NCBI GenBank assembly: GCA_039794045.1
Contig: JBAMLY010000008.1
Location: forward strand, 1 to 34,489
Direction of reading: 5' to 3'
Origin: Candidatus Micrarchaeia archaeon
GTDB taxonomy: Archaea > Micrarchaeota > Micrarchaeia > Norongarragalinales > UBA8480
Length of the DNA stretch: 34,489 nt
Shown here piece after piece: positions 6,659 to 34,270 of the stretch. Made by a program: the position numbers and the translations under genes. The notes under the pieces were generated by a model that saw only the letters and a program-made list of their open reading frames with translations, had not been told where the DNA came from and ran no database searches. Position 1 is the stretch's first letter; each line of letters starts with the position of its first letter.

Positions 6659-7450
6659 CCTATTTTGAGATAAGTTGTGTTACACGCGACTGACTTCTCT
6701 TTGTGACGTCGCGTCGTTCTTGCCGCAACGCGTTTTACAGTCGTTTAGGGCATTCCAGCCTTTACAGTGCGCGCGCTTTGAGAAGCCTTTGCGGGTTTCT
6801 TGCAGTGCGCGGGCGTTGACGGCGTCGTGATAATCCGAGGAGACTTCAACAGGCGCTTTTGCGTCGATGACGTTCGTTTCGGGTTTGATGCAGAAGACCT
6901 TGGGAGCAAAAAAGCTGAGAGTTAGTTCTTGCGGCCCTCTACGGCCACGCGCTATCGCGCGTGAGCCTCACACCAGTCGATCCTGCTGGAGGGCACTGCT
7001 ATCGGATTGCGACTAAGACATGCAAGTTTTAAGACCGGGCTTCCGGTCTTGGCGTACGGCTGAGTAACACGTAGTCAACATACCCTAGAGATTCGAATAA
7101 CTTCGAGAAATTGAAGCGAATTCGTTATAGGCAAGGATTTCTGGAAGGAAGCCTTGCTGAAAAGGAGCCTGAATTGCAGGGAGTTCCGCTCTAGGATTGG
7201 ACTGCGTCTGATTAGGCTGTTGGCGGGGTAACGGCCCACCAAACCAATAATCAGTAGGGGCTATGGGAGTAGTAGCCTCCAGAAGGGCACTGAGACAAGG
7301 GCCCTAGCCCTATGGGGTGCAGCAGTTACGAAACTTCCGCAATGCGCGAAAGCGTGACGGGGGTAGTCCGAGTGGCATTCGAAAGAATGCCTTTTGGCCA
7401 GTCCGAATAACTGGCAGAATAAGTGGTGGGTAAAGCCTGTGCCAGCCGCC

Positions 7451-7482
7451 AGCGGCAACAACTCACGAGTTGTCGCCGGTAA
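7451..7482 (+). other. 32-nt BHB intron in 16S 530 loop (about E. coli 526/527)
   Basis: Splits GTGCCAGCCGCC|GCGGTAATAC; helix GCCG/CGGT, bulges CC|A and AA|G, hairpin GCGGCAAC...GTTGTCGC. Confidence 0.9.
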
Positions 7483-7653
7483 GCGGTAATACAGGTAGCA
7501 CGAGTGGTGTCCGCGAATATTGAGCCTAAAGCGCCCGTAGCCGGTTCGGCAAATTTCCTGTGAAATCTTCCAGCTTAACTGGGAGGCTTGCAGGAAACAC
7601 TACCGGGCTTGGGAGTGGGGGAGGTCAGGGGTACGTCAGGGGGAGCGGTTAAA

Positions 7654-7692
7654 TCACGCGCGTAGCGCGACTTGTTGCGCGCGTTGTAACAA
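7654..7692 (+). other. 39-nt BHB intron in 16S 690 loop (about 696/697)
   Basis: Splits GCGGTTAAA|TGCTTTAATCC; helix GTTA/TAAC, bulges AA|T and AA|T. Confidence 0.88.
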
Positions 7693-7774
7693 TGCTTTAA
7701 TCCTTGACGGACCACCAGTGGCGAAGGCGCCTGACCAAAACACGTCCGACGGTGAGGGACGAAGGCCAGGGGAG

Positions 7775-7806
<32 letters not shown>

Positions 7807-7888
7807 AGTAAATGATGCAGACTAGACGTTGCACTTGCTTCGAGCAAGTGCAGTGCCGTAGCGAAGGCGATTAGTCTGCCGCTTGGGG

Positions 7889-7931
<43 letters not shown>

Positions 7932-8073
7932 TACCACAAGCCGTGGATGCTGCGGTTCAATTGGATTCAACGCCGGGAAACTCACCAGGAAAGACGGCAG
8001 GATGAAGCTCAGGCTGAAGACCTTAGCCAACAAGCCGAGAAGTGTTGCATGGCCAGCGTCAGCTCGTGCCGTG

Positions 8074-8172
8074 AAAGAGCAGCTTCCTCGAATGAAGGAA
8101 AGCTTTCCAACCGCGTTAAACGCGCGGGCGTTGCTTTCAGACGAGAGTTGAATGGGAGCTGTTTTTCGGTAC
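8074..8172 (+). other. 99-nt BHB intron in 16S (about 1079/1080)
   Basis: Splits CAGCTCGTGCCGTG|AGGTGTCAGGTTAAGTCC; helix GCCG/CGGT, bulges TG|A and AC|A, long stem AAGAGCAGCTTCC/GGGAGCTGTTTTT. Confidence 0.9.
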
Positions 8173-8820
8173 AGGTGTCAGGTTAAGTCCTGCAACGAGC
8201 GAGATCCCCGTTCACAGTTGCCATCTTTGAAGTGATTCAAAGAGCACTCTGTGAAGACTGCTTGCGTTAAGCTAGAGGAAGGAGGGGGCGACGCTAGGTC
8301 AGTATGGCCCGAATTTCCTGGGCCACACGTGGCATACAATGGCGGAGACAATGGGTTCCGACGCCGAAAGGCGAAGGCAATCTCAGAAACTCCGCCTCAG
8401 TTCGGATTGGGCGCTGAAACTCGTGCCCATGAAGCTGGAATGGCTAGTAATCGCGTGTCATCATCGCGCGGTGAATATGTCCATGCTCCTTGCACACACC
8501 GCCCGTCAAGCCATCCAAGCGAGGCTTTAATGAGGCTCGGACTTAGGTTCGAGTCGAGCTAAAGCTTTGTGAGGAGGGTTAAGTCGTAACAAGGTAACCG
8601 TAGGGGAACCTGCGGTTAGATCACCTCCAATTGGTCGAAAGCGCGAACGCAGAAGTTCTGTTCTCGCGCGAAACTAGAACTAATTCGGAGAATTCCAGGA
8701 ATCAATTCCGCCTGGAAGCGCTAAAGCATCGAGCTTGCCTCGATGATTTGCAATTTCCTTGGTCTTCTGCAAAAAAACTTTTGTGGGCTCGTGGCGCAGT
8801 GGTAGCGCGCCTGCTTTGCA

Positions 8821-8903
8821 AGCAACCCTTTTCTTCGTCGCTTCGCCTTCGGGGTTCAGTTCCTCGAAAAGCGTTGACGGAAAAAGAGAATGGTTGCCGG
8901 GAA
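8821..8903 (+). other. 83-nt canonical intron of tRNA-Ala; intron family B
   Basis: BHB with helix TTTG/CGGG and closing stem GCAACC/GGTTGC; near-identical to the tRNA-Glu intron. Confidence 0.9.
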
Positions 8904-8925
8904 AGCAGGAGGTCGCGGGTTCAAA

Positions 8926-9004
8926 AGCCATGCCTCTTTTCTTTTCGTAGGAGAAAAGACGCTGGGCGTGGCGCAGAGAAAACGCCGCGCCTGACAGCGG
9001 AGTA
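8926..9004 (+). other. 79-nt T-loop intron (59/60) of tRNA-Ala
   Basis: Removal restores TTCAAAT; contains hairpin GCCATGCC...GGGCGTGGC; boundary +/-1 nt. Confidence 0.8.
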
Positions 9005-9326
9005 TCCCGTCGAGTCCATTTTTTCGTGCAGGGCAACGCATTCGATTGCGTGTCTTGCTAACGCAACCGTTTCTTTGGTTGCGCCGCTCGCGAGTAAGTC
9101 CCCTTGATTGAGAGGGGCTTTGTAGAGCGCAGTGCGGAACGACTGCCTCGGGCTTTCAAGCCAGGAGGCTTTGCTTGAAGTGAAGCGCGACAGTGTTTGC
9201 GTTGGAGCGTGGAACGACAAGCAAAAAAGTCGGGTATGAAGCTTTTACAGGAAAGGAGTCTAACGGAAGATCACGTGCATGGAAGCCGCGAAAGCGGTTG
9301 CCGTGTAATGGTCTTTTGGGAAAAAA

Positions 9327-12277
9327 GTGCTACTAGTTAGTGCCGTACAGTGGATGGTTGGGCTCGGAAAACGATGAAAGGCGTGGCAAGCTGCGAAAAG
9401 CCAAGGGTAGGAGCAGGCGTCCTTTGATCCTTGGATTCCTGAATTGCTCGGAGACGAGTGAAGACCGGCGGAATTGAAATATCTTAGTACGCCGAGGAAG
9501 AGAAACCAACCGGGATTCCGTGAGTAAGGCGACTGAAAGCGGAGTAGAGCAAACCGAATGCCTCTGCGCAAGCAGGGGACGAATGTGGTGTTTGGACCTC
9601 CTTTTAGCACCGGAAATGCATTGTCTGAAGTGAGCTGGAATGCTCCGTCTTAGAAAGTGAAAGCCTTGTAGGACTAGCGTTTTCGGGCGTGGAGAGTTCC
9701 AGAGTAAGGCAGCCTTGCATGGCTGCAAGAACGTGGGAGGATTAACTTCCAACTCTAAACATATTTCGAGACCGATAGCGTAAATGAGTACCGTGAGGGA
9801 AAACTGAAAAGCACCCCGACAGGGGAGTTAAAAGTGCCTGAAACTGTGCGGCTACAGTGAGACGTGGCGTGAAAGGAATGTAGCGCGCGAAAGCGCGCCA
9901 AACAGCGTTGCGTCGTACTTCTTGAAGCAAGGGCCAGGGAGTTCAAGGGAGTGGCGAGCATTAAGCAAAGCGAAAGCGATTCCGCGCAACCGCGCAAGCG
10001 GCGAGGCGGGGCGTCTTAACGGGCGCCGAGTCACTGTCTTGAGACCCGAAGCCGAAGCGATCTATGCGTGAGCAGGATGAAGCCGCTCTTCCGAGTGGTG
10101 GAGGTCCGCAACCGATTCTGGTCTAACCGACCGGGTGACTCACGTATAGGGATGAAAGTTCATTCGAGCTCGGCATTAGCGGGTTCCCTCCGAAGTGTCT
10201 CCCAGGACAGCCTCGCTGGAGGCAGACTCTAGGTAGAGCCACCGATTAGGGGGCATGGGGAGTAAAATCCTCACCTTCTCGTCGAACTCCGAAGCTAGAG
10301 TCGCCGTAGAAGGCGGGAGTTGGGATGTACGAGGTAAGCGCGTACTCCGTGAGGGGAAAGACCCCTACTGCGGTTAAGGCCCCAAAGAAGTGGCTAAGTG
10401 GAAAGTCAAGACGTCTTGGTTCTCAGACAGCTGGGAGGTAGGCTTAGAAGCAGCCATCCTTTAAACAACGCGTAACAGCGGACCAGTCAAGTTCTGGGGC
10501 GTCGCAAACTATCGGGCCTAAGCCACTCGCCGATACCGTGGAACTGCAGTTGAACTGCAGATTTGGTAGGAGGGTGTACTGACTGAGTGGAAGGAGGTTC
10601 GCGAGAACCTCTGGATCGGTTAGTAACAAATATCCTGGTGCTAGTAGCATCTATTCCAGGCGAGAATCCTGGACGCCGGAAGGGCAAGGGTTTCTTGGCA
10701 ACGCTAGAAACCAACTTTTCTTTTGAGAAAAGAAGAAAGAGAGAAGAGGGTTGGCGAGTCGGCCAAGAGTAAGTCGGTCCTAAGGCTAAACGTAACCGTG
10801 ATGCCGAAAGGGAAACACGTTAACAATCGTGTACCTCGTTGGGGCGCGCGGCAACGCAAGTTCAAGTCAGACGCCTGTGGATAAGCCGAGCGGCTGCGAA
10901 GCCGTTCAACAAAGATAGCGCGAGGAAGTCTCGTTGTGAGGAGCACTCGCACAAATTTGGAGTAGCCCGCAAGGGTTCGGCTGATTCCGTGGGCCCGTGA
11001 AAATGGCTTGGAAAGCTTTCAACGAGTCCGTACCAAGAACCAGTACAGGTGCCCCTAGCAGAGAAAGCTAAGGCGTGGCAGGAAAACCGAAGCAAGGGAA
11101 CTCGGCAAGTTAGTCCCGTAAGTTAGCAAGAAGGGATGCCTACACTTCTTCCAAGATTACATCAAGGAGGACTTGTAGGTCTCAGTAACAAGGGGACGTC
11201 GACTGTTTACCAAAAACACAGGTTTCAGCAAGGTGGAAACGCTGAGTACTGAAGCCGACGCCTGCTCACCAGCAGTATCTGAAGCTGGGGTTCAACTCAG
11301 TCAAGGACTGCTAAGGAGCGGGAGTAACTCTGACTCTCTTAAGGTAGCGTAGTACCTCGCCGCTTAATTGGCGGCTTGCATGAATGGCGTAACGAGCGTC
11401 CCACTGTCCCTGCTTTGGACCTGGCGAACCTACTACACGGTGAACATGCCGTGGACTCCGAGTGGGAAACGAAGACCCCATAGACCTTAACAACAGTCTG
11501 TAGTTGCGTCGCGGTTGGTGATGCAAAGCGTAAGCAGGAGCCGTTAAGTCCGCTCTTTCGGGGGCGGGATAGGCGAAAGTGTGACACTGCTCTTCTTCGA
11601 CTACGTCGCTTACCCTAAAGGGACAGCTGCAGATGGGTTGTTCGACTGGGGCGGTACGCCTTCGATAACGAAACAAAGGCGCCCAAAGCTCAACTCAAGA
11701 GCGTCAGAAACGCTTTGTAGAGGGTTAAACACAAATGTTGGGCTGACTGTGTCCTTAACAAAATGGGATGCAGACGCGAAAGCGGGGGTTAACGAACAAT
11801 AGTGTGCCTCTTGATGGGGCCCTATTCTGACAGACAAGGTACCTTGGGGGTAACAGGCTCGTCGCGTGCGAGAGTTCATATCGACCACGCGGTTTGGTAC
11901 ATCGCTATCGGCTCGGGACATCCTGGTGGTGCAGGAGCCACCAAGGGTTGGGTTGTTCATCCATTAAAGTCCCACGTTAGTTGGGTTCAAAACGTCGCGA
12001 GACAGTTTGGTGGCATCTACTCGGAGTGTTTGGCTGGCTGAGGGTAAGGTTTCCTAAGTACGAGAGGAACGGGAAATCGGCGCCTCTAGTTAAGCTGTTG
12101 TGTCAACGCAGGCAGCATAGCCACGCGCCAAGGGATAAGTCCTGAAAGCATCTCAAGGACGAAGCCCCTCCTAAAACGAGCCAGCTTAGGACGCCCGTAG
12201 CAGACGGGTTTGATAGGGCAGGAGTGTAAACCAAGAGCGCAAGCGATTGGCGAGCTAACTGCTACTAAAGTCCGCAC
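9327..12277 (+). rRNA. rrl: 23S rRNA (archaeal) with one intron
   Basis: GTGGATGG..GGCTCGG 5' region, AGTACCGTGAGGGAAA, GTPase centre GGCTTAGAAGCAGCCA, TAAGGTAGCG, PTC loop, sarcin-ricin loop AGTACGAGAGGAAC; ends approximate. Confidence 0.96.
10708..10758 (+). other. 51-nt BHB intron in 23S (about E. coli 1328/1329); resembles family A
   Basis: Splits GGCAACGCTAG|TCGGCCAAGAG; helix CGCT/GGCG, bulges AG|A and AG|T, closing stem AACC/GGTT. Confidence 0.85.
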
Positions 12278-12523
12278 CCAAAAAACACTGCCATCGCTCC
12301 CCAGAGCGCGCGAGCGCGTTGAAGGGAAGAGAACTGAAAATAGTGTTTTTTTGGGGTAACACTTTTTCACCCAAAAAGCAACACCATTTAGCACGTCAAG
12401 AAATGACTCCGTTCCTTTCCAGTAAAAGCGTGCAAACGCGCGCTGCGCTCGCAGTTTCTTCAATGCCGAGCGGCAAGCATATTTTAAAAACGAAGCGCCC
12501 AAAAATTATTTGGGTGGCGCTCA

Positions 12524-13471
12524 TTGAAAAAACTGTTTTTTTGTTTCGGCTTGTTCCTGGCTTTGCTCACTGTTTTTGCTGGCGCGGTTGCCTCGGAAAA
12601 CCACGAAATAACGATTACTGTAAGCGAAGCACAGCAGCTCGTCCGCGTCGTCGGAGACTTTAATTATTCGGAAATACTGCCTGGATTTGATTACGAGCGC
12701 CCCATCGTAGTAGAGTGGAACGTTCCAGACAATGCCTTGCAAGCGCAAGCGCCAAACGGCATAACAATTTATGGACGCATTTCCACGACCGCAAAAAACG
12801 GTGATGCCTGGATTTCCTTCAAGAGGAGCCCGGACAGTCGTGCACGGAAAAGCCTTTCCTTCAAGCTTTACTGCAACGTTCAAGGCGGGCAGTGCTCAAC
12901 CAACTCAAAGCTTTCAGAGAACTTTTTAATAGTGTTGAACAAGCCAGCAAACGCTTTAGAGGAACACTACGAACAAGTTTTAGTTAACGCCAGCCTCTCG
13001 CCGTTGCCGTTGACTGAAGAAGAAAAAAAAGCGAGCGCCTTAAGCGACGAAATCGCGGTAACCGCCGCTGAAGCCGCGCAACTCGACAACGAGAGCGCAG
13101 CGTTCGCCAGTGAGGTAAACGGAGCGCTGGACACGGCGCGAAACGCGTTGAAGCTCGACGACTACGAGTTCGCGGAAGTGGAGTTAAAGCGAGCGCAGTC
13201 CAAGTTACTTGAAGCCCAACAACAAATGCAGGACCGCAAGCGCGAAGAAGAAGCCAGGAAGGCAGAGCAAGAGAAAAACGATTGGCTTACTGGTTTGTTC
13301 GCCGCAGGAAAAAGCGAGGTTTACTTGGCGGCCGCCCTCTTAGTCATTGCAGCGTTCGCGACATACTATTTCTATGCGCGAAACAAAGAGAAAGGAAGTC
13401 TTGACGACGTCGTCCTCGAAGCAGAAAAAGAAGAAGGACTCGGCAAGAAAGCGCCCTTCAAAAAACTTTGA
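12524..13471 (+). CDS. Hypothetical exported, C-terminally membrane-anchored protein
   Basis: Signal peptide MKKLFFCFGLFLALLTVFAGAVA, coiled-coil middle, C-terminal TM; TTG start after GGTGG. Confidence 0.75.
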   Translation: MKKLFFCFGLFLALLTVFAGAVASENHEITITVSEAQQLVRVVGDFNYSEILPGFDYERPIVVEWNVPDNALQAQAPNGITIYGRISTTAKNGDAWISFKRSPDSRARKSLSFKLYCNVQGGQCSTNSKLSENFLIVLNKPANALEEHYEQVLVNASLSPLPLTEEEKKASALSDEIAVTAAEAAQLDNESAAFASEVNGALDTARNALKLDDYEFAEVELKRAQSKLLEAQQQMQDRKREEEARKAEQEKNDWLTGLFAAGKSEVYLAAALLVIAAFATYYFYARNKEKGSLDDVVLEAEKEEGLGKKAPFKKL

Positions 13472-13754
13472 CGAGCGGGTGTGGCGCGCTTGCTCACGAA
13501 TTCCGAGAGGAAGCGTGATTACTTACAAGGAGCTAGCGCAAGCAATAGGCGCGCCTCGCGCTTGGCGTGCGGCCGCTAACGCGCTCGCCCGCAACCCGTT
13601 CGCGCCCAAGATTCCTTGTCACCGTGTGGTGCGCAGCAACGGAGCAATTGGAGGCTACTCAGGCAAGGGCGGCGCGCGGCAAAAAGAATTGTTGCTTAAG
13701 CGGGAGGGCGTGAAAATAATTAGGGGCAAGGTAGTGTTTTCGTCGTCGTTTTAG
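13374..13754 (+). CDS. ogt: O6-alkylguanine DNA alkyltransferase (MGMT/Ogt, C-terminal domain only)
   Basis: IPRGSVITYKELA...RAAANALARNP...IPCHRVV active-site motif; start uncertain and overlaps the upstream gene. Confidence 0.85.
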   Translation: MRETKRKEVLTTSSSKQKKKKDSARKRPSKNFDERVWRACSRIPRGSVITYKELAQAIGAPRAWRAAANALARNPFAPKIPCHRVVRSNGAIGGYSGKGGARQKELLLKREGVKIIRGKVVFSSSF

Positions 13755-14518
13755 CGCAGCCAACGCATTTTGCTTTTAATCCATTCTTCTGCTTGCCTTA
13801 ATTGCTTAAAATTGCGTTCGTCTTCCTTGAAGGCGTGCGAGTGAACAGTGCGGCGCAAGGACTTGCCTCGCTCGAACAACACTTCGTGCTTGGCGTGCAA
13901 GAGCTCATGGAAAATAATGTAGTGGAGAACGAATGAAGGGCAATTTGGTGAATCGAATGCCTTGCTCACTACAACCGTGTTGGTGGCAGAGTCGTGAAAG
14001 CCAAGCCTAGTAAAGCTTTTCTCGCGAGACCACGCAATCTTCGGCAAGTTCACGCCCGAAAATATTTCTGCGTAATCGCTAACAACTGCCGCCATTTCGC
14101 GCCTTAAATCGTAGTAGCTTCCCTCGTCCCGCGAACCCACTCTTCTTCCGCGCAGGCGGCGCAGCGAGTCGGAGAGCCTTGAAGCTGAAGCACTTGCAGC
14201 GAACGCCTTGTACGCGCGCAGGAGGCAAGCGTGCTCTGGTCTTGCGTGCTTGCGGAAGGCCTTGGAAAGCAAGTGCAGCGCGAGTCCCTGCACTGCTTCT
14301 TGTGGTGCTGCCTTGAAGCCGTCGCTCACGCGCGCAGTTATCTTGCCTCCCTGTATTTTCACTTCTGCCTTAAGTCCAGCGAACTCGTGAAAGCGCGCGT
14401 CCACGAAGAAATTGTTTACGCCTAAGAGCGAGCAGGCGCTGTAGAACGCGAGGTTCAAGTCTCCTTCGCCTGTCTGGGCTTCGTTTAGGCTTTTCACGAG
14501 CAAAAAACGGTCTTCCAC
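13751..14518 (-). CDS. SprT/YgjP-like zinc metallopeptidase-domain protein
   Basis: PSFVLHYIIFHELLH (HExxH) and downstream HSHAFK motif. Confidence 0.75.
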   Translation of the reverse strand: MEDRFLLVKSLNEAQTGEGDLNLAFYSACSLLGVNNFFVDARFHEFAGLKAEVKIQGGKITARVSDGFKAAPQEAVQGLALHLLSKAFRKHARPEHACLLRAYKAFAASASASRLSDSLRRLRGRRVGSRDEGSYYDLRREMAAVVSDYAEIFSGVNLPKIAWSREKSFTRLGFHDSATNTVVVSKAFDSPNCPSFVLHYIIFHELLHAKHEVLFERGKSLRRTVHSHAFKEDERNFKQLRQAEEWIKSKMRWLR

Positions 14519-14551
14519 AGCAATTTTATATTAAAAAAACCTTTTTATTGG

Positions 14552-14879
14552 TGGGGGCGGTGGGTGGATTGCTGTCGGTGGCATTTGCGTGCAAGCGCGT
14601 GCCGCTGAGGAACTTCCGCTTACCCTGGCGTTTCGCCAGCAATAGGCGCGAGAGCGCCCCGTTTAAGGCGGGAGCCAAGAGCAGAAACGACATCCGTCCT
14701 GCAGAGCAATGAAGAAAACGAGCTGGGAAGCAGGAGAAGAGCGAGCCAAGTGAAGCTAAAGCCGAACGAGGCGAGCCCTTTCGTGGAGTGAAACGTGCTT
14801 GGCTTGGTACAAGGCCGTAACGGCCGCTTAGTCCAATGCAATCAAAAAACAGAAAGCGGGGTACGGCCCGCCGCCCCCA
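14552..14879 (+). ncRNA. rnpB: RNase P RNA (archaeal)
   Basis: P1 TGGGGGCGGTGGG/CCCGCCGCCCCCA; CR-I GAGGAACTTCCGC; CR-II GCAGAAAC; CR-III TGAAAC; GCTTAGTCCAATG; CR-V AAACAGAAAGCGGGGTAC; TATA-like TTTTATAT at about 14524. Confidence 0.9.
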
Positions 14880-14937
14880 ACGAAACGTTTTAATGACGCG
14901 TGAAGCGCTGCAAGCGTTTTGTTTTAATGGTGGTTTA

Positions 14938-16707
14938 ATGCTGTCTGCGAAAGAGATTACTGACAAGTACTTAGAGTTCTTCAAGAGAAAGCAGCACGCA
15001 GTAATAGAGTCTGCTTCACTCATTCCAGAGAACGACCCAACCGTCTTGTTTACTACGGCGGGAATGCATCCCTTGGTTCCTTTTCTTTTGGGGCAGCCGC
15101 ACCCGCGCGGCAAGCGGCTTGCTAACGTGCAAAAGTGCTTGCGCACGGATGACATCGACGAAGTTGGGGACGCGTGCCACCACACTTTTTTCTTCATGCT
15201 CGGCAACTGGAGCTTGGGCGACTACTTCAAGAAGGAAGCAATTGAAATGAGTTGGGAATTCCTCACTTCCCCGGAGTGGCTCGGCATTCCCAAGGAAAGG
15301 ATTGCAGTAACTTGTTTTACGGGAGACTCTGACGCGCCCAAGGACGAGGAAAGCGCGGCGGTGTGGCGCTCGCTGGGAGTTCCAGAGGAAAGAATTTTTT
15401 TCAACGGAAAAAAAGACAATTGGTGGGGCCCAGCAGGCCAGAGCGGGCCGTGCGGCCCCGACACTGAAATGTTTTACTTTACTGGCAGGAAGGAAGGCGA
15501 GTGCGACAAGGAAGGCTGTGGCCCGGGCTGCCACTGCGGGCGGTGGGTGGAAATCTGGAACGACGTGTTCATGGAGTACAACAAAAACAAGGACGGCTCT
15601 TTCACTAAGCTTGCCCAGCAGAACGTTGACACTGGAATGGGGTTGGAACGCACTGCCGCAGTCCTTCAAGGCGCGTCCAGCGACTACGAAACAGAGTTGT
15701 TCAAACCAGTAATGGACTGGTTAAAGCAAAACGCTGTTTCGTCGAACGAGAAGTCACTGCGCATAATAGCAGACCACTTGCGCGCCGCGACGTTCGTGTT
15801 GGCAGACGAGAAGGGAGTGACGCCAAGCAACGTCGAGCACGGCTACGTGCTCCGCCGCCTCATTCGCAGGGCAATCCGGCACGCGCGCCAAATTGGAGTC
15901 AAGACGCCTTTCTGCAGGAAGGTCGCCGAGTTGTTCATCGAAATCTATGGCGCAGACTGGCCTGAGCTAACGCGCAACAAAGCCTTCGTGTTCGCCGAAT
16001 TAGAAAAAGAAGAAAAGCGCTTTGCGGAAACACTGGAGCGCGGCATTCACGAGTTCGAGCGAATATTCCTTGAAAGCAGTGGAAGAATTTCGGGTGAAAA
16101 CGCTTTCTTATTGTATCAGTCTTACGGTTTTCCCCTTGAAATGACTGTCGAGCTCGCAAAAGAAAAAAATGGCGTCGTGGACGAAACAGGATTTCAAGAA
16201 GCACTTGAAAAACACCAAAAAACTTCGCGCGAAAGCAACAAGCAAAAATTTGCTTCCGGGCTCGCCGACTTCAGCGAGAAAACGATTGCGTTACATACTG
16301 CTACTCACTTGCTTCAAGCCGCGCTGCGAAAGTTCTTGGGCGAAAGCGTGCAACAAAAAGGATCCAACATAACGCCCGAGAGGCTGCGCTTTGACTTCAG
16401 TTGGCCTGAAAAACTCTCGCCGCAACAAATCAAGTTAGTGGAAGACCAAGTCAACGAGTGGATAAAGCAAGGCATTCCAGTAGAACGCAAGGAAGAAACC
16501 ATTGAAGAAGCAAGAAAGGAAGGCGCGCTGGCTTTCTTTACAGCCAAATACGGGGAAAAAGTGTCGGTTTACACTATTCCAGGCGCGAGCAAGGAAGTCT
16601 GCACTGGCCCCCACGTGGAAAACACTTCCAAGCTCGGCAAGTTCAAGATTCTCAAGGAAGAAGCGGTTAGCGCAGGAGTGCGACGCATCAAGGCAGTGCT
16701 GGAGTGA
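14938..16707 (+). CDS. alaS: Alanyl-tRNA synthetase, compact form (589 aa)
   Basis: DPTVLFTTAGMHP, HHTFFFMLGNWS.GDYFK, GPCGP, VDTGMGLER, HTATH and CTGPH editing motifs; ends at GVRRIKAVLE. Start placed downstream of rnpB. Confidence 0.95.
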   Translation: MLSAKEITDKYLEFFKRKQHAVIESASLIPENDPTVLFTTAGMHPLVPFLLGQPHPRGKRLANVQKCLRTDDIDEVGDACHHTFFFMLGNWSLGDYFKKEAIEMSWEFLTSPEWLGIPKERIAVTCFTGDSDAPKDEESAAVWRSLGVPEERIFFNGKKDNWWGPAGQSGPCGPDTEMFYFTGRKEGECDKEGCGPGCHCGRWVEIWNDVFMEYNKNKDGSFTKLAQQNVDTGMGLERTAAVLQGASSDYETELFKPVMDWLKQNAVSSNEKSLRIIADHLRAATFVLADEKGVTPSNVEHGYVLRRLIRRAIRHARQIGVKTPFCRKVAELFIEIYGADWPELTRNKAFVFAELEKEEKRFAETLERGIHEFERIFLESSGRISGENAFLLYQSYGFPLEMTVELAKEKNGVVDETGFQEALEKHQKTSRESNKQKFASGLADFSEKTIALHTATHLLQAALRKFLGESVQQKGSNITPERLRFDFSWPEKLSPQQIKLVEDQVNEWIKQGIPVERKEETIEEARKEGALAFFTAKYGEKVSVYTIPGASKEVCTGPHVENTSKLGKFKILKEEAVSAGVRRIKAVLE

Positions 16708-16943
16708 AGATGGTTTTGATGAGTGAAAGCGAAACACGCGACCTTTTGAAGTATTTTCTTGAAGCAGGGCAGCTTAAGGTCATCAGGAACTCGGGTTGGT
16801 GCTGCAAGGAAGGACGAAAAAACCCTGAGAAGATCGCGGTCAAGCTCCTTTTCCACGACATGCACGAAGCCCTCCTGAAGAAAACCGACTCGGGCGACTG
16901 GTGGAAGGGCCTGAAGGAAGACGTCTCAAAACTCAAATACTGA
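16704..16943 (+). CDS. Small hypothetical protein
   Basis: 79-aa ORF filling the gap between alaS and the hydrolase, with GTGA overlap. Confidence 0.55.
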   Translation: MKMVLMSESETRDLLKYFLEAGQLKVIRNSGWCCKEGRKNPEKIAVKLLFHDMHEALLKKTDSGDWWKGLKEDVSKLKY

Positions 16944-16957
16944 AAAGGTGTTTTTCC

Positions 16958-17671
16958 TTGCAGCAAAAAATCGTTTTCAAGTCGCAAGGCAAAAAGGTTT
17001 CAGTGATTCTCGACGTGCCGCTCGCCGCAGGAAAGGTTCCTGCCCTCGTTTTATGCCATGGCTTCCTCGGCCGCAAAGAACAAAAACTTCTCTCTGTCTT
17101 TGCGCACGAGTTCTGCAAAGCTGGATTTCTTGTGTTTCGCTTCGACTTCTTTGGCTGCAACGCGAACAAGCCCGCAAAAAAAATAGTTGGCGTTCACGAA
17201 CACGAACGACAAATTCTTGACGCGCTTGCGCTATTGCGTAAAATGCGTGGTGTTGACAGCAAAAAAATATTCATCGCAGGCCACAGTTACGGCGCCAATA
17301 TTTGCCTTCTCGCCGCAGCGCACCGCAAAGTTGCTGGCGTGATTTTGTTGGCGCCGGGAAGGAAGTTCGAGAAGTATGCTCACCTCTTTAATAACAACAC
17401 CTTTAAGATTTTCGGCCGCAGCTTCGCCGTCACCAAACGAGCATGGCGCGGTTGGACGGAAACCGACTTGGACGACGCGCTAGCGAAAATAAAGTGTCCT
17501 TTGCTAGTCATAGCAGCTGGCTTGGATGAGTATGTGCCAATTAAAGAGCTAAAGAAAAGGTTTAGCGGCAAAGCAAAAATAGAGGTTTTCCGCTCGTCGG
17601 ACCACTTGATGCACGGATTCGAGGAAAAAGCCGCGAAGAAGGCACTCAAATTCATTACTCGAATTCGTTGA
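16958..17671 (+). CDS. Alpha/beta-fold hydrolase
   Basis: LCHGFLG, FRFDFFG, GHSYG nucleophile elbow, D..VP and SDH catalytic motifs; TTG start after AGGTG. Confidence 0.85.
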   Translation: MQQKIVFKSQGKKVSVILDVPLAAGKVPALVLCHGFLGRKEQKLLSVFAHEFCKAGFLVFRFDFFGCNANKPAKKIVGVHEHERQILDALALLRKMRGVDSKKIFIAGHSYGANICLLAAAHRKVAGVILLAPGRKFEKYAHLFNNNTFKIFGRSFAVTKRAWRGWTETDLDDALAKIKCPLLVIAAGLDEYVPIKELKKRFSGKAKIEVFRSSDHLMHGFEEKAAKKALKFITRIR

Positions 17672-17843
17672 AGGAAAAGCTCGAGCTTTTTTTCTTGCAG
17701 TCAATGCGGCGCGCAGTCATCCAAACACGGTAAGCATGCCGCCAGTCGTGTCTGCTGCTCTCGCCAAGAAAAACAGTTCACATCAAGCAATAAAACACTG
17801 AAGAAAATCAAAAGAAAATAAAAAATAAAGGATTTAACGGGCC

Positions 17844-17996
17844 TCAGCCCATCAATCCCTTGCGTTTTACGAACGCCCACAGCTTCTTCGTCATCTCGCT
17901 GGGCGCCATCTTCGAGTTGCCGAAAACTTCTCCGAGCGTAGTGTCGGAGACGCTGGCGAAACTGACGGTCATGCCGCCAAAGGGTTTCCTTGCCAT
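17844..17996 (-). CDS. 50-aa SWIB/MDM2-like mini-protein (absent from the ORF track)
   Basis: MARKPFGGMTVSFASVSDTTLGEVFGNSKMAPSEMTKKLWAFVKRKGLMG; strong SD AGGTGATC just upstream. Confidence 0.75.
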   Translation of the reverse strand: MARKPFGGMTVSFASVSDTTLGEVFGNSKMAPSEMTKKLWAFVKRKGLMG

Positions 17997-18145
17997 TACA
18001 GATCACCTTGGTTTCAAGCGAGTTTTAGAGGAAAAACCCCTCGCAAACCCACCGCTTAACTCACTGCGCCGTCCTTTAAAAAGACTATTCTACTAGGGAA
18101 AACTACCCTTTCCTAGAGGTAAAAAACAGGCAAAACGGCCGGCAG

Positions 18146-18904
18146 TCAGCTTTCTATCCTCTTGAAAAGCGCGGCCGCCGCGTAGGTGGAGACGACGAAG
18201 AAGAGCAGAAGCACCGCCACGCAGAGGGCGAGCGGCAGTTCCGACGAGCCGGTGAGGGTGAAGCGCAGCGCCTCCACGCCGTAAGTCAGCGGGTTCGCGT
18301 AGGAAAGCGCCTGCACAGGCAGGGGCGCGTTAACTAGCGGGAATAGCGCGCCGGAGAGGAAGAACATCGGCATTACGAGGAAGTTCATCACCAGCTGGAA
18401 GCCGTGCATGTCCTCCATCATGGAGGCGATTGCTATGCCGACCGACACGAAGGCCACCGAAATCAGCACCATCAAGACTATTGCGAGCGGCAGCGCGAGA
18501 AGGTTCAAGTGAACGCCCATCAGCAGCGCAATCACGAGCATCAGCAAACCCTGGATGACCGCGGTGGTGGCGCCGCCAAGAGCCTTGCCTATCGCGATGC
18601 TGGTGCGGCTCACGGGCGCGACTAGCGTTTCCTTGAGGAAGCCGAACTGGCGGTCCATTATTATCGTGACGCCAGAGAAAATCGAGCCGAACAGCAGCAC
18701 CATGCCGAGTATGCCCGGCGCGATGAACTCCATGTAGGAGCCGCTGAAGCCCGGAAGGCTGAGCGCGCCGTTCAGGCCAGTGCCGATTATTGCGAGGAAG
18801 AAGAAGGGCATGCCGAGGCTGCCGATGACGCGGCTCTTCGCGCGCCAGAAGCGGATGATCTCGCGCTTCCACAGCCAGTAGATTGCCGAGAGGTTCACGT
18901 TCAT
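18146..18904 (-). CDS. ABC-2 type transporter permease (DrrB-like)
   Basis: DRQFGFLKETLVAPVSR, PMFFLSGALFP, NPLTYGVEALR; ATGA overlap with the ATPase gene. Confidence 0.92.
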   Translation of the reverse strand: MNVNLSAIYWLWKREIIRFWRAKSRVIGSLGMPFFFLAIIGTGLNGALSLPGFSGSYMEFIAPGILGMVLLFGSIFSGVTIIMDRQFGFLKETLVAPVSRTSIAIGKALGGATTAVIQGLLMLVIALLMGVHLNLLALPLAIVLMVLISVAFVSVGIAIASMMEDMHGFQLVMNFLVMPMFFLSGALFPLVNAPLPVQALSYANPLTYGVEALRFTLTGSSELPLALCVAVLLLFFVVSTYAAAALFKRIES

Positions 18905-19890
18905 GGGCGTCTCCCCGCCTTCAGCCTCATGCGCCACGCGTCCTTCGCCGATGCGCCTTCCTCGCGGATCGCCCTGCCGGTGTGGTGAAGGAACACGTCG
19001 TCCAGCGACGGCTTGCGCAGGTTCACGAATGAAACCTTCAGGCCCGCCGAGCGCGCGGCCTCGATTATCTTCGGAATCTGCTTTTCGCCCTCGGAAACGC
19101 GGACAACCAGCTTGCTGTTCTCCGAAAGGACTTCCCTGCAGCAGCCCTTCTTGCGCAGCAACTTTTCAAGAAGCGCGTTGTCGTCGCAGGCTATTTCAAC
19201 TATGTCGCCGCCGAGGGAGTTCTTCAGCTCGGCTGGCGAGCCGCGGACTACTATCCTGCCGCGGTCGATTATCGCGATGCGGTCGCAGAGGCTGTCCGCC
19301 TCGTCCAGGTAATGCGTGGTAAGCACTATCGTGATCCCCTTTTCCTTTTTCAGGCGGCGGATGTACTGCCAGACGTGCTCGCGCGTCTGCGGGTCCAGGC
19401 CCAGCGTGGGCTCGTCGAGGAAAAGCACCTTCGGGTAGTGCAGCAGGCTGCGCGCAATCTCCAGCCTGCGCCTCATGCCGCCGGAAAAAGTCTTGACCAG
19501 GTCCTTGGCGCGGTCTGAGAGCTCAACCACTTCCAGCGCTTCCCTCATCCGCTGCTCGCGGTCCGCGCGCTCCACTCCGTACATCACTGCATGCAGTTCG
19601 AGGTTTTCCCGCGCGGTGAGCTCCTCGTCAAGCGAGGGGTCCTGGAACACTATGCCTATGCTGGCGCGCACCTTTCCCGAGTCGCGGACAACGTCGAAGC
19701 CGTTGACTTTCGCGCTGCCGCTCGTGGGGTGCTTGGTGGTGACGAGCATGGAGATGAGCGTGGTCTTTCCCGCGCCGTTGGGCCCCAGGAGGCCGAAGGT
19801 CTCGCCCTTGCGGACGCTGAGCGAAACCTTGTCCACTGCGGTGAGCTTGCCGAACCGCTTGGTCAAACTAGTTGTTTCGATGGCATTCAT
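18901..19890 (-). CDS. ABC transporter ATP-binding protein (DrrA-like)
   Basis: Walker A GPNGAGKTT, FSGGMRRR, LFLDEPT, LTTHY. Confidence 0.95.
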   Translation of the reverse strand: MNAIETTSLTKRFGKLTAVDKVSLSVRKGETFGLLGPNGAGKTTLISMLVTTKHPTSGSAKVNGFDVVRDSGKVRASIGIVFQDPSLDEELTARENLELHAVMYGVERADREQRMREALEVVELSDRAKDLVKTFSGGMRRRLEIARSLLHYPKVLFLDEPTLGLDPQTREHVWQYIRRLKKEKGITIVLTTHYLDEADSLCDRIAIIDRGRIVVRGSPAELKNSLGGDIVEIACDDNALLEKLLRKKGCCREVLSENSKLVVRVSEGEKQIPKIIEAARSAGLKVSFVNLRKPSLDDVFLHHTGRAIREEGASAKDAWRMRLKAGRRP

Positions 19891-19903
19891 TGCAGTTTAC
19901 CGT

Positions 19904-20209
19904 TCAGCGCTTCTGCGTGGCGTCCTCCTTCATGATGAACTTGACCATGAGGAAGATTACGAGCGCCACTATGATGAAGTCGATGACGGCGCCGATGAAG
20001 TCGCCGATGAGGAACTTGGAGTTGCCGACCTGCACCGCGATGGTCCTCCAGTCGCCGCCAGGAATAATCATCCCTACTATGGGCATCACGAGGTCGTTCA
20101 CGAGGGCGGTCACGAGCTTGGTGGCCGCGACGCCGATTATGAACGCGACCGCGAGGCCGAGAACCTGGTACTTCTTCAGGAAATCCTTGAATTCAGCAAC
20201 AAAACCCAC
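19904..20209 (-). CDS. mscL: Large-conductance mechanosensitive channel
   Basis: EFKDFL...LAVAFIIG.A..KLV.ALVNDLVMP...GDFIGAVIDFIIVA. Confidence 0.9.
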   Translation of the reverse strand: MGFVAEFKDFLKKYQVLGLAVAFIIGVAATKLVTALVNDLVMPIVGMIIPGGDWRTIAVQVGNSKFLIGDFIGAVIDFIIVALVIFLMVKFIMKEDATQKR

Positions 20210-20268
20210 TCGATCACCTTACAGGAATAATTCGCCTAGGATTTAAAACGGGAGTGCCGCGCGCTGAA

Positions 20269-20757
20269 TTACTGCTTGCGGGGCAGCTCGTCCTCGGCGG
20301 TCACGCGGAACAGTTTTGCGCCGCTTTTCTCGCACTCGAGCGCCTTGCGGCCGAAAGGCAGGAGAAGTTTCATCGCCTCTTCCTCGGAAAACCACGCGGC
20401 CCCGCTTTCATCCGCGCCCGCCTTGAGCTCGCCTTCCAACGGTTTCGCGGAAATTATGGCTACGAACATGTGGCACGGGTTTCCTATCAGCTCCCCCAGG
20501 CAAACCAGTTTTTCGGCCCTGGCGCGGATTCCCGCCTCTTCCTCGACCTCGCGCTCGGCGGCATCGAACAGCGACTCGCCGCCCGCAACCTTGCCGCCGG
20601 GCAGGCTCCAGTAGCCTTCGTAGTATCCCTTGCCCACCCGAATAAGCAGGAGCTTGCCTTCCTTGTTGCGCACTATGGCGTTGGCGTTGACCTTGAAGCA
20701 ACTGCGCGAAGGGCAGTCGTAGTAAAGCCTTCCTCCCTCGCAACGCGTTTCAGCCAT
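20269..20757 (-). CDS. NUDIX hydrolase
   Basis: WSLPGGKVAGGESLFDAAEREVEEEAG Nudix box. Confidence 0.88.
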   Translation of the reverse strand: MAETRCEGGRLYYDCPSRSCFKVNANAIVRNKEGKLLLIRVGKGYYEGYWSLPGGKVAGGESLFDAAEREVEEEAGIRARAEKLVCLGELIGNPCHMFVAIISAKPLEGELKAGADESGAAWFSEEEAMKLLLPFGRKALECEKSGAKLFRVTAEDELPRKQ

Positions 20758-20815
20758 TCAAAACACCTTGAAGTAAGAGTGCCGCGGGGGAGAATTGAAC
20801 CCCCGACCTCCAGAT

Positions 20816-20855
20816 GGCTCGAGCGACTTTAAAGCGACGAGCGCTTTTTTTCGCT
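20816..20855 (-). other. 40-nt canonical (37/38) intron of tRNA-Met
   Basis: Removal restores the CTCATAA loop. Confidence 0.82.
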
Positions 20856-20862
20856 TATGAGT

Positions 20863-20946
20863 TTCGCGCCAGCTTTTCCGTGGAGCTTTTTCGGGCAGCG
20901 AAGCAAAGGCTTGCAGCCGAGCGAAGCCGCGACGAAAAAAGGCTGA
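20863..20946 (-). other. 84-nt intron at 30/31 of tRNA-Met; diverged family B
   Basis: Removal restores the CCAGA/TCTGG stem; relaxed BHB; shares CTTTT..TCGTCGC and CGAAAA.GC...ACGGAAAAG blocks with the Ala/Glu introns. Confidence 0.8.
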
Positions 20947-21034
20947 CTGGCGCTCTAACCAACTGAGCTACCGCGGCAAATTATTTTGTTTTTGGGCGAG
21001 AATCAATAAAAAGCGTTGCTAATTAACTTGTTTC

Positions 21035-21529
21035 ATGGACTTGACTGCCTTGATTTCTTCTTGGAGTAACTCAGTGGTTACTGTTGTGGCTCGCTTTTTT
21101 CACGAGTACTGGGGGCTGGGAGTGTTCTTCTTGCCTGCCGGGCTATTGTTCGCGCGGAAAAAGAAGGCTTTAGTGCTCGCGTTGGCGTTGGCGTTGTTGT
21201 TGGTTCCGGTGCTGAAAAGCGTTTATGCTCAACCGCGTCCTTGCGCGAACTTGAAGGTCGAGTGCGAGCAAGACTACGGCTTTCCTTCGGCTCACGCGGT
21301 AGTCGCATTCGTTTTCGCTGCCGCTTCAGTGGGGTCTTGGCTTTTCTTTTTGTTCTTGCCTGCGGCGGTTTTCGTGGCTTTCTCGCGGGTTTACTTGGGA
21401 GTGCATAGCTTCGAGCAGGTCGCCGGCGGAGTGGCTCTTGGGGTAGTATTGTTTTTCGTGGCCGACGCTATAGTAGAGCGTATTAGTTCAGTGTTTGAAG
21501 GTGTTTTTTCTTGGCGGAAGTCAACTTGA
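21035..21529 (+). CDS. PAP2-family membrane phosphatase
   Basis: KxxxxxxRP, FPSAHA and SRVYLGVH motifs. Confidence 0.88.
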   Translation: MDLTALISSWSNSVVTVVARFFHEYWGLGVFFLPAGLLFARKKKALVLALALALLLVPVLKSVYAQPRPCANLKVECEQDYGFPSAHAVVAFVFAAASVGSWLFFLFLPAAVFVAFSRVYLGVHSFEQVAGGVALGVVLFFVADAIVERISSVFEGVFSWRKST

Positions 21530-22074
21530 AGGAAGCTCGGCGGCAGGCAGTGCACGTGTTGGCTGGCTTGCTTGTAGTCGCCTCGGTTTTCGTGGCGGGT
21601 TTCCAGCTTACTTTGTTGTTCTTGTTGGCAGTGTTGTGCGCTGGCTTTGCTTTGTCGACAGTTAAAGCGTTAGGTGGCTCGATAGGAGTTTTCGACGAGG
21701 CTTTAAAGCAATTAGAGCGAGGTGGCGTCATGCCTTTTCATGGCGCGCTCGCTTTCGTTGCCGGCGCTCTTTTTGCTCTCACGTTTTCTCCAGACCGCGC
21801 TTTTGGTTTGGGGGTGGTAATGATTCTCGCTTTCGGGGACGGTTTTTCTACTCTCGTGGGCTTGACTGGCCGTACGCGTCTTCCCTGGAACAAGAAAAAA
21901 ACTTGGCGGGGGTTGCTTGCCTTTACTTTGGCGGGAGGAATTGCCTCGCTTGCTTTCATGAGCGTGGCGGGACTTGGTTACGCTTTAATTTGTGGTTTAG
22001 TGGAAAGCGTTGACGCGGGCTTGGACGACAACATTCTAGTGCCAGTCGCCGCAGTAGCACTTAAAATGGTTTGA
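21511..22074 (+). CDS. Dolichol/phytol kinase-like (CTP-dependent) membrane protein
   Basis: RQAVH, LAFGDGFSTLVG, KKTWRG and DDNILVP motifs. Confidence 0.82.
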   Translation: MAEVNLKEARRQAVHVLAGLLVVASVFVAGFQLTLLFLLAVLCAGFALSTVKALGGSIGVFDEALKQLERGGVMPFHGALAFVAGALFALTFSPDRAFGLGVVMILAFGDGFSTLVGLTGRTRLPWNKKKTWRGLLAFTLAGGIASLAFMSVAGLGYALICGLVESVDAGLDDNILVPVAAVALKMV

Positions 22075-22092
22075 GTTAAGAGGTGTTTTTGA

Positions 22093-22731
22093 TTGCCGGA
22101 GAAAGGCGTTTTTATAGTCGTGGAAGGAATTGACGGCAGCGGCAAGGGCTTCATTACTTCGCGCTTGCAGGAATACGTGATGAACCGCTCCAAAAAATAC
22201 GATCACGTTCTCGTCACGCGCGAGCCAACGCATGGGAGGTTCGGGCAAAGAATTCGAGAGATTCTGCGCAGCGAGAAAGACCCTTACGCTGGAGCAAGAC
22301 AGTGCCTAGAGCTTTACGTTAACGACCGACGCGAGCACTTGCGCAACCACATAGAGCCAGCGCTGGCTAAAGGGTACGTGGTGTTGTGCGACCGCTACAA
22401 GTATTCCACTATCGCGTTCCAGCAAGCCCAAGGAATTCCACTTGCTGAACTCATGGCTTCCCAGCAGTCAATGCGTTCGCCTGACTTGGTTTTGTTGCTT
22501 GACTTGCCAGCAAAGATTGGTTTGGAGCGCGTGCGCGAAAGAGAGGGAAAAGAAGGGAACGAGAAGTTCGAGCAACTCGAGTTCGCGGAGAAAGTGCGCC
22601 AAAATTACTTGGACGTGGCAAGGCTTTTCCCGACAGAAAAAATTTTCGTGGTAGACGCTTCAAAAACCAGGGAAGAAGTGTGGGCGCAAGTCAAGAAAAT
22701 AGTTGACGACAGCGGCGTTCTACCTTACTGA
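22093..22731 (+). CDS. tmk: Thymidylate kinase
   Basis: FIVVEGIDGSGK, TREPT, VLCDRYKYSTIAFQ, PDLVLLLD. Confidence 0.92.
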   Translation: MPEKGVFIVVEGIDGSGKGFITSRLQEYVMNRSKKYDHVLVTREPTHGRFGQRIREILRSEKDPYAGARQCLELYVNDRREHLRNHIEPALAKGYVVLCDRYKYSTIAFQQAQGIPLAELMASQQSMRSPDLVLLLDLPAKIGLERVREREGKEGNEKFEQLEFAEKVRQNYLDVARLFPTEKIFVVDASKTREEVWAQVKKIVDDSGVLPY

Positions 22732-22778
22732 AACGAATTTATTTATTGCCTGCAAGAATTATTCAGCGATTTTTTGTT

Positions 22779-22936
22779 GCTCCAGTCGTCTAGCTCGGTC
22801 AAGGATACCGGCCTTTCAAGCAACCCTTTTCTTCGTCGCTCCGCCTTCGGGGCTCCGTTCCTCGAAAAGCGTTGACGGAAAGGAAAAGGCGCTGCGCAGA
22901 AAGCCGGCGACCCGGGTTCAAATCCCGGTTGGAGCA
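22779..22936 (+). tRNA. tRNA-Glu(TTC) with canonical intron
   Basis: GCTCCAG/TTGGAGC acceptor; CCGGC-CTTTCA|A-GCCGG; CCGGG-TTCAAAT-CCCGG. Confidence 0.93.
22819..22901 (+). other. 83-nt canonical intron of tRNA-Glu; intron family B
   Basis: 60 of the first 63 nt identical to the tRNA-Ala intron (manual alignment). Confidence 0.9.
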
Positions 22937-34085: not shown

Positions 34086-34153
34086 GAAAAAACCAAGGAA
34101 AACGCCACTTAAAATACGTTCACGTAAAAAAAAGCAAGGCGGGCCCACTGGGA

Positions 34154-34201
34154 CTTTCCTCACCAACCTCCTTTTCTTTCTTTCAAAGAAAGGAAGCTGG
34201 T
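34154..34201 (-). other. 48-nt T-loop intron of tRNA-Arg; family A
   Basis: 28 of the first 30 nt identical to the tRNA-Leu T-loop intron; shared GAGGTTGG. Confidence 0.88.
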
Positions 34202-34223
34202 TTTGAACCCAGGACCTTCTGCT

Positions 34224-34251
34224 TTCCCCGCAAAACCGTTAACGGCTCGCT
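34224..34251 (-). other. 28-nt canonical intron of tRNA-Arg
   Basis: BHB helix CTTC/GGGG; hairpin GCCGTTAACGGT. Confidence 0.85.
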
Positions 34252-34270
34252 TAGAAGGCAGCTGCGCTAT

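Follow-up and report, generated by a model that had tools for sequence, protein, structure and literature searches.

Why should two tRNA genes with unrelated exons carry nearly the same intron? The question is raised by contig JBAMLY010000008.1 of the Candidatus Micrarchaeia archaeon assembly GCA_039794045.1, of which we analysed positions 1 to 34,489 of the forward strand (34,489 nt; hereafter the window). The two genes, tRNA-Ala(TGC) and, 14 kb downstream, tRNA-Glu(TTC), each contain an 83-nt intron at position 37/38. Having compared the pair with the rest of the 655-kb assembly (92% complete) and with other archaeal genomes, we consider it likely, with a probability of roughly 0.7, that the two introns are copies of a small dispersed archaeal repeat that spreads at the DNA level and persists where the transcript sheds it. 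This three-part structured repeat, which forms the body of many tRNA introns, is apparently pan-archaeal and undescribed.

The introns of tRNA-Ala(TGC) and tRNA-Glu(TTC)

tRNA-Ala(TGC) occupies positions 8785-9018 on the plus strand, as do all features in this section, and lies in the 16S-23S rRNA spacer; G3:U70 is present and the gene contains two introns. tRNA-Glu(TTC) (22779-22936) contains one. A first-pass annotation made from the sequence alone had described 83-nt introns at 37/38 in both genes, and our analysis places them at the same coordinates, 8821-8903 (Ala) and 22819-22901 (Glu). Recomputing the ungapped comparison returned the values given before, 69/83 identical positions overall and 60/63 at the start. 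The core is 95% identical and the last 25 nt, by hand count, about 56%, and identity stops at the end of a conserved GGAAA motif. The exons, said to be unrelated, are indeed alike only in generic tRNA features, and a blastn search of the whole genome returned the Ala-Glu pair as the sole long match of either region (62/65, E=1.4e-24). With default settings ARAGORN finds no tRNA in the window. It calls tRNA-Glu(ttc) with an 83-nt intron once introns are allowed, and the Rfam tRNA model scores 41.9 bits on 22779-22936. Removing the introns in silico restores both tRNA-Ala(tgc) and tRNA-Glu(ttc); for tRNA-Ala this requires removal of the T-loop intron as well as the one at 37/38.

The shared core was delimited with a covariance model, termed R1, which matches 8824-8891 in Ala (44.9 bits, E=6e-8 in the genome search) and 22822-22889 in Glu (43.5 bits, E=1.4e-7). 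In the Ala copy, the 5' motif AACCC and the pyrimidine arm (Y) CTTTTC lie at 8824-8833, the purine arm R1 (GAAAAG), which is the Watson-Crick partner of Y in the family consensus, at 8866-8871, the conserved linker CGTTGACG (family consensus CGTTNACG, with N free) at 8872-8879, and the 3' purine tail R2 (GAAAAAG), which mirrors R1 over five positions, at 8880-8886. The Glu copy has the same linker, CGTTGACG, at 22870-22877. Strong divergence between the copies is confined to the exon-specific 3' arm. In Ala this arm (8892-8903) consists of GGTTGC, which pairs with GCAACC at 8822-8827, then CGGG, which can pair with UUUG of the anticodon loop, and finally the AA of the 3' bulge; its diverged counterpart in Glu (22890-22901) reads CGCTGC, GCAG, AA. 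The tetranucleotides that the first-pass annotation had paired with the anticodon loops are thus present, at 8898-8901 (CGGG) and 22896-22899 (GCAG).

Intron copies of the repeat share this plan: behind the element come a strand complementary to its 5' end, 4 nt complementary to the exon bases immediately before the 5' bulge, and the two bases of the 3' bulge. For Ala the closing pairing is GCAACC/GGUUGC; many other copies have (A)ACCC/GGGU(U). A strict 3-4-3 bulge-helix-bulge (BHB) motif can be drawn for Ala, with a central helix H of UUUG/CGGG that includes three G.U pairs. The BHB of Glu is relaxed, with three of four pairs in H (one mismatch) and only three contiguous pairs in h'. Both introns fold into the same rod in their predicted minimum free energy (MFE) structures (z -2.58 and -1.27), and all three differences within the shared 63 nt fall at unpaired positions of this common fold. 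The rod had been part of the first-pass annotation and stands; the C(TTCG)G tetraloop at its tip does not, as the tip is a 7-bp helix with a 7-nt loop.

The 385-aa EndA of the host can be matched end to end (E=7e-127) to PDB 4fz2, the epsilon2 endonuclease of ARMAN-2, which has broad specificity, and its RtcB ligase has a profile score of 579 bits. Judged by these homologies, the host encodes an epsilon2-type EndA and an RtcB, the set needed to splice such introns, and splicing would be expected at the sites drawn here.

A dispersed repeat with three covarying parts

Searches of the genome with a 14-mer of the linker region and with model R1 place the pair in a larger family. The first-pass annotation had overlooked this wide family and the second intron of tRNA-Ala, and had taken the whole rod as the conserved part; across copies it is only the conserved motifs that recur. 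The most conserved stretch, the 14-mer AGCGTTGACGGAAA in the linker region, occurs nine times in the genome with at most one mismatch. Besides the window pair, it is found in the D-arm of tRNA-Glu(CTC), at 37/38 of tRNA-Asp and tRNA-Val, in the D-loops of tRNA-Leu(CAG) and one more tRNA, in a copy within the spacer that separates tRNA-Tyr from tRNA-Asp, and in one ambiguous context. Model R1, built from 85 short copies of other genomes, gave 12 matches at E<=1, seven of them at E<1e-4. Five of these strong copies are introns, of Ala, Glu-TTC, Glu-CTC (D-arm), Asp and Val. The other two are not: one lies 4 nt behind tRNA-His, the other after a duplicated promoter and the first 15 nt of tRNA-Thr. 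The tRNA-associated copies in this genome are in sense orientation without exception (10/10).

The tRNA-Thr(CGT) locus (contig C10, 8380-8720) shows a 62-nt direct duplication, comprising the promoter region and the first 15 nt of the gene, that flanks the element copy; duplication and element stand upstream of the intact gene. In two relatives (G003 and G011), an element of opposite orientation has a 15-nt copy of this tRNA-Thr 5' end at its flank.

Elements range from about 36 to about 90 nt. The 5' half of the consensus consists of A-ACCC, a run of three to seven U, a stem strand and a loop or insert whose length varies from 3 to about 50 nt; the 3' half consists of the complementary strand, an A-run, G, the linker CGUUNACG, G and another A-run, often followed by more purines. 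The linker forms a conserved 8-nt palindromic second loop, the central N of which is free (A 26, G 23, T 19, C 17; n=85). In the helix between Y and R1, 84.3% of cells are paired and 153 cells have changed on both sides, compared with 60 ± 8 after shuffling (0/500 shuffles reach the observed value); this covariation also clearly exceeds all slid controls. R2 repeats R1 in mirror order rather than directly, and the tail obeys the mirror rule in asymmetric cases as well (U3-C-U4/5, U5-C-U2, U4-C-U3-C-U2).

A third strand was examined in an alignment of 59 distinct model-aligned copies from the relatives and the window. The final C of AACCC forms a triad with the bases that end R1 and begin R2; this triad reads C-G-G in 46 rows and T-A-A in 12, with no mixed case (58/59 rows). 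The first A of AACCC covaries with the fourth linker base (A-T 52, G-C 5, G.T 1), and the third base of AACCC with the second and seventh linker bases (C-G-C 47, T-A-T 3, G-C-G 1; 8/59 exceptions). Because these columns are unpaired in the model, the triad counts are independent of it. Triad runs reach 9-14 in a homopurine subclass.

The order of pyrimidine arm, purine arm and mirror purine arm, with C-G-G and T-A-A triads, is what characterises class II purine-motif intrastrand triplex repeats as described by Holder et al. (2015, PMC4666352), and the archaeal family resembles that pattern in sequence. According to the same paper, purine-motif triplexes do not form in RNA, which would place the putative fold on single-stranded DNA. 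Part of the covariation would fit alternative Watson-Crick helices equally well without any triplex, namely the G-C-G triple and a pairing of the 5' AAC with the linker that competes with the linker's own hairpin.

We searched for the repeat in 61 genomes of the same order, 11 of which belong to the same family. The 14-mer alone proved unspecific, as it matches 44/61 relatives and a reversed control also occurs in many, and the covariance model was used instead. At E<=0.001, R1 finds the element in 17/61 relatives (5/11 within the family), with 1-17 copies each. A two-motif scan of the genome collection (exact ACCCTTT, a gap of 15-45 nt, then AGCGTTNACGGAAA) returned at least 122 loci, of which at least 117 have archaeal record titles. 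Among the matches listed, the archaeal titles cover Micrarchaeota, Aenigmatarchaeota, Iainarchaeum, Nano-, Woese- and Parvarchaeota, Altiarchaeota, ANME-1/Methanophagales, Syntrophoarchaeum, Methanocellales, Methanosarcinales, Thermoplasmata and Nitrososphaeria; the five loci with bacterial titles all lack the helix. In five genomes searched whole, copies lie on several contigs: ANME-1, 6; a Nitrosotalea metagenome-assembled genome (MAG), 8; Altiarchaeota, 17; Aenigmatarchaeota, 3; and Methanocellales, 1.

Many copies are associated with tRNA genes. Deleting element and flank restores an ARAGORN tRNA in 28/125 copies (D, anticodon and T regions), and an in-register T-arm box stands beside the element in 47/125; both figures are lower bounds, and the antisense control for the T-arm heuristic is invalid because the T-arm is near-palindromic. 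A count by eye puts about 70/130 copies in or adjoining tRNAs, above the automated bounds, neither estimate being exact. Other copies are insertions in 16S and 23S rRNA, or occupy spacers inside ribosomal-protein operons. Tandem arrays have periods of 42-50 nt, direct repeats of 12-62 nt flank a few copies, all of them non-intron, and outside genes the element occurs in either orientation (loci L163 and L167).

Some of these loci deserve a brief description. At L031 (G038:C123:18100-19000), four tandem minimal units with a 50-nt period stand upstream of a gene whose product, by eye, resembles a CCA-adding nucleotidyltransferase. The element lies inside 23S rRNA at L039 (G022:C21) and, as two tandem copies, in a Micrarchaeia MAG (L044), and inside 16S rRNA at L162 (G003:C28:1567-1616). 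In G022, an intron-less tRNA-Ala is followed by an element copy in the spacer.

Other features of the window and the genome bear on the same subject. The second intron of tRNA-Ala, in the T-loop (8926-9004, plus strand, about 79 nt, boundaries ±1), folds into a U-rich/A-rich pyrimidine/purine hairpin and a GC hairpin (z -3.23), and is without the CGTTNACG linker. A candidate third, diverged copy of the element (AGCC-T6..., A5G-CTCCACG-GAAAAG) was picked out by eye at 20873-20944 on the minus strand; the R1 search of the genome gave no match there. It lies inside a disrupted tRNA (20780-20977, minus strand) for which ARAGORN wrongly proposes a tRNA-Gly(acc) containing an intron of 126 nt. A mini-exon resembling an anticodon loop (CTCATAA) sits between two inserts, the first of which is element-like with the linker CTCCACG, and the gene is probably a tRNA-Met(CAT) with two introns. 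Near the end of the window (about 34140-34322, minus strand) is an Arg-TCT-like tRNA with the anticodon loop CTTCTAA and three introns. Its anticodon-loop intron contains CCGTTAACGG, and the first 29 nt of its T-loop intron exactly equal those of the T-loop intron of tRNA-Leu(CAG) on contig C11 (30440-30720), which implies that another intron family has been copied from tRNA to tRNA. On contig C10 (7183-7450), a tRNA-Ser(CGA)-like gene has an intron of about 180 nt with a pyrimidine/purine hairpin, the mirror purine tract of which occupies the loop of a second hairpin, replacing the usual linker. The rRNA operon of the window is archaeal, with Rfam matches for 16S rRNA at 6970-8629 (plus strand) and 23S rRNA at 9332-12287. 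The 16S match spans 1660 nt against a model of 1478 positions, so that the gene probably contains one or more insertions totalling about 180 nt; no strong element match was found in it. Genome-wide, ARAGORN reports 11 tRNA genes without introns and 19 when canonical introns are allowed. Non-canonical introns, or more than one intron, seem to be present in most of the genome's tRNA genes.

Origin and persistence of the repeat

The history of the pair was traced in the 11 family relatives. tRNA-Glu(TTC) could be resolved in nine of them (all except G001 and G009). Five of the 11 (G002, G004, G005, G006 and G008) lack a 37/38 intron in this gene, and in the four members of genus g4 (G003, G007, G010 and G011) the site holds an unrelated one; an element-type intron was found in none of the nine. 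tRNA-Ala(TGC) has an element-type 37/38 intron, of another subtype, in three g4 genomes (G003, G007 and G011), and is without it in G001, G002, G004 and G006, where T-loop introns are still present. T-loop introns occur in the tRNA-Ala of all seven family relatives examined. A 30-nt insert specific to the Ala/Glu pair has no other match in the genome by blastn and was found at 0 loci in metagenome contigs. From the ortholog pattern it follows that the Ala intron site is the older one and that, among the relatives searched, the Glu element is confined to this genome. We infer that the Glu copy either was copied recently from Ala in this lineage or had its core overwritten by that of Ala. The copy event of the first-pass annotation is thus supported in outline, both by the ortholog pattern and by the pair being by far the closest within a multi-copy family; a re-tailoring of the BHB arm may have accompanied it, but core conversion, or landing of the module inside an older intron, would account for the contrast between core and 3' end just as well.

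Three routes would fit these observations. The element may have been freshly copied into Glu, with its 3' arm adapted afterwards; conversion may have transferred the core from one older intron to another; or the module may have entered an intron that was already present. The absence of element-type Glu introns from the relatives favours the fresh copy, and the sharp drop in identity precisely where the conserved 3' motif ends slightly favours conversion or module insertion. In its strongest form, the conversion scenario dispenses with a new insertion altogether: both tRNAs would already have had 37/38 introns, and one conversion tract, with the conserved motifs of the 5' and 3' ends as its anchors, would have overwritten the core of one with that of the other and left the exon-specific arms in place. 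This would account for a 60/63 core whose identity ends at GGAAA ahead of a 3' end with only about 56% likeness, and site 37/38 of tRNA-Glu(TTC) is evidently used recurrently, as the unrelated introns in four family relatives show. It is harder to reconcile with the nine resolved relatives, none of which has an element-type intron in this gene, and the 3' arm of the Glu intron shows no clear likeness to the g4 introns beyond the AGAA end. We regard this scenario as somewhat unlikely.

Whichever route produced the Glu copy, we prefer to see both introns as members of a repeat that duplicates at the DNA level. The patchy distribution, the varied contexts, the flanking repeats and the presence or absence at orthologous sites fit a duplicative, selfish repeat. 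No match to a reverse transcriptase (RVT_1) or to an IS200-type transposase (Y1_Tnp) was found in the 92%-complete genome, the search for transposases being limited to the latter family. Spread would proceed with no dedicated enzyme encoded in this genome, by template switching, conversion or local duplication, and a hairpin or class II triplex formed by one strand could favour these events. The repeat would persist as the body of BHB introns, both in rRNA and in tRNAs (D-, anticodon- and T-loops), and also directly behind tRNA 3' ends and in spacers behind genes. As an intron, its short 3' arm (the closing strand, the 4 nt that can pair with the anticodon loop, and AA) would build the splice motif, which the epsilon2-type EndA would cut before RtcB joins the exons. 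A more specific version, to which we would give rather less than even odds, takes the core as a self-folding three-stranded module with a CGUUNACG turn that acts as an enzyme-free mobile seed of archaeal tRNA and rRNA introns. Such a seed would land at the loops or ends of stable-RNA genes, where a few 3' nucleotides matching the upstream exon would turn it into a removable BHB intron.

Several observations weigh against a mobile repeat of this kind. A simple recent duplication does not explain the likeness of only about 56% in the 3' 25 nt of the pair. BHB-constrained folds of both introns lie 8-10 kcal/mol above the predicted MFE, and that of Glu is imperfect. The window copies have only five (Ala) and four (Glu) consecutive triads, and a class II stem has six or more. 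The triad covariation stems largely from the homopurine subfamily and from related copies, so that there were fewer events than rows, and one triad has 8/59 exceptions. No vector for spread between phyla is known, the two-motif scan of viral contigs having returned 0 loci, and contamination of MAGs could inflate the taxonomic breadth. Finally, about 20 nt are near-invariant across phyla, which is more than a selfish repeat without its own enzyme should keep.

This near-invariance keeps alive the alternative that a conserved host factor or function is involved. The core would then be a functional RNA module, retained because it is needed by the precursor or by the released RNA, which may be circular; it might bind a conserved protein, block exonucleases, aid the folding or processing of the pre-tRNA, or terminate transcription at its U-run. 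In favour of such a module, the near-invariant stretch of about 20 nt spans many archaeal phyla, in contrast to a freely variable hairpin insert, the tRNA-associated copies of this genome are uniformly in sense orientation, stand-alone copies among the matches listed are often situated behind stop codons or tRNA 3' ends (as judged by eye), and the three core differences of the window copies avoid stems. However, an essential RNA should be less dispensable than an element that is patchy within the family (5/11) and varies in copy number from none found to 17. Nor would an RNA function predict either orientation outside genes, tandem arrays or flanking duplications. The element matches no Rfam family, and a purine-motif triplex, if that is what the covariation reflects, would not form in RNA (PMC4666352). 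On balance, we consider a functional RNA an unlikely explanation of the family.

That the pair is an assembly artefact, one intron having been collapsed or chimerically placed at two loci, is suggested by nothing except the near-identity of the introns and can be dismissed: the copies differ at 14/83 positions, and Logan contigs of run X1 (2,678 nt and 22,837 nt; possibly from the source sample, and thus an independent assembler but not independent data) bridge each locus with unique flanks, one difference each and equal depth (36 and 35.6), which rules out the collapse or mis-assembly that the first-pass annotation had allowed for.

Known systems and implications

How does the repeat relate to what has been described? 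At the Rfam 15 gathering score the window yields only tRNA, rRNA and RNase P RNA, and at E<=10 the intron and eight other copies give only hairpin matches at chance level. The archaeal pre-tRNA-Trp intron carries a box C/D guide RNA, and resembles the present introns in that a structured, conserved RNA is located inside a tRNA intron. Unlike it, neither window intron has a visible C (RUGAUGA) or D (CUGA) box, and no snoRNA family is matched at threshold. Small ribozymes, K-turn or box C/D RNAs and H/ACA RNAs were dropped by eye, as their motifs are lacking. The linker was rejected as a promoter or origin box, its central N being free and its flanks being mirror rather than dyad repeats. An IS200/IS605-derived or other miniature inverted-repeat transposable element was rejected too: there is no match to Y1_Tnp, the transposase family covered by the search, no fixed target (the bases before AACCC vary), and flanking repeats are rare. 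Literature searches, motif strings included, found no description of the element, the strings occurring only in a T-cell and a bark-beetle paper whose titles and abstracts concern other subjects; this result does not extend to the supplements of the ARMAN and Thermoproteales papers, which may list such introns.

The closest precedent is in Thermoproteales, where the copying of BHB introns among tRNA genes is described as intron gain, by a mechanism that is given as unknown and presumed to act at the DNA level (PMC4090602); these transposed introns (Fujishima et al. 2010) are also cited in PMC3239211 and PMC3218864. The likeness lies in near-identical introns at different tRNAs (62/65 for Ala/Glu) and in the same core recurring in the D-arm of tRNA-Glu(CTC) and at 37/38 of tRNA-Asp and tRNA-Val. 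Compared with the Thermoproteales type as portrayed in the relevant review passages, the present repeat differs in its defined core of about 40 nt with invariant motifs, in its occurrence in many phyla by record titles, in its further copies in tRNA trailers, rRNA, spacers and tandem arrays, and in its three-part covariation.

The closest relatives in structure are the bacterial BoxC, PIT and TMECO repeats (PMC4666352). They have the same arm order and triads, and are likewise multi-copy, conserved and tied to local rearrangement. TMECO is G/C-rich, is reported from Enterobacteria and Cyanobacteria and has a short second loop, and the word tRNA is absent from the text of that paper. The archaeal element, in contrast, is A/U-rich and provides the body of introns, and its second loop is a palindrome of 8 nt; its triplex is putative. 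ARMAN-2 and other Micrarchaeota resemble the host in having multiple introns at D-, anticodon- and T-loops and a full-length epsilon2 EndA homologue (PMC3239211, PMC3488258). The ARMAN-2 introns covered by the relevant parts of these papers are short (13-25 nt), and those parts mention neither a conserved core nor copies outside tRNAs.

The mechanism by which archaeal tRNA introns arise and move is unknown according to the review cited above (PMC4090602), and a 2026 preprint on Asgard archaea states that 'how they arrive remains open' (10.64898/2026.10.13.758758). The element provides a discrete handle on the spread of archaeal tRNA introns that can be searched for by sequence. The material that it supplies includes fresh copies, such as the Ala/Glu pair, presence and absence at orthologous sites, and extra-genic copies with flanking duplications. 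The question of intron gain thereby becomes testable by comparative genomics, by EndA cleavage, for which an epsilon2 endonuclease has already been crystallised, and by biophysical work on 40-nt molecules. In practical terms, most tRNA genes of the host escape standard tRNA finders. If the reading of the core as a mobile seed is true, the element would be the first defined vehicle of archaeal intron gain, and it would operate across most archaeal phyla.

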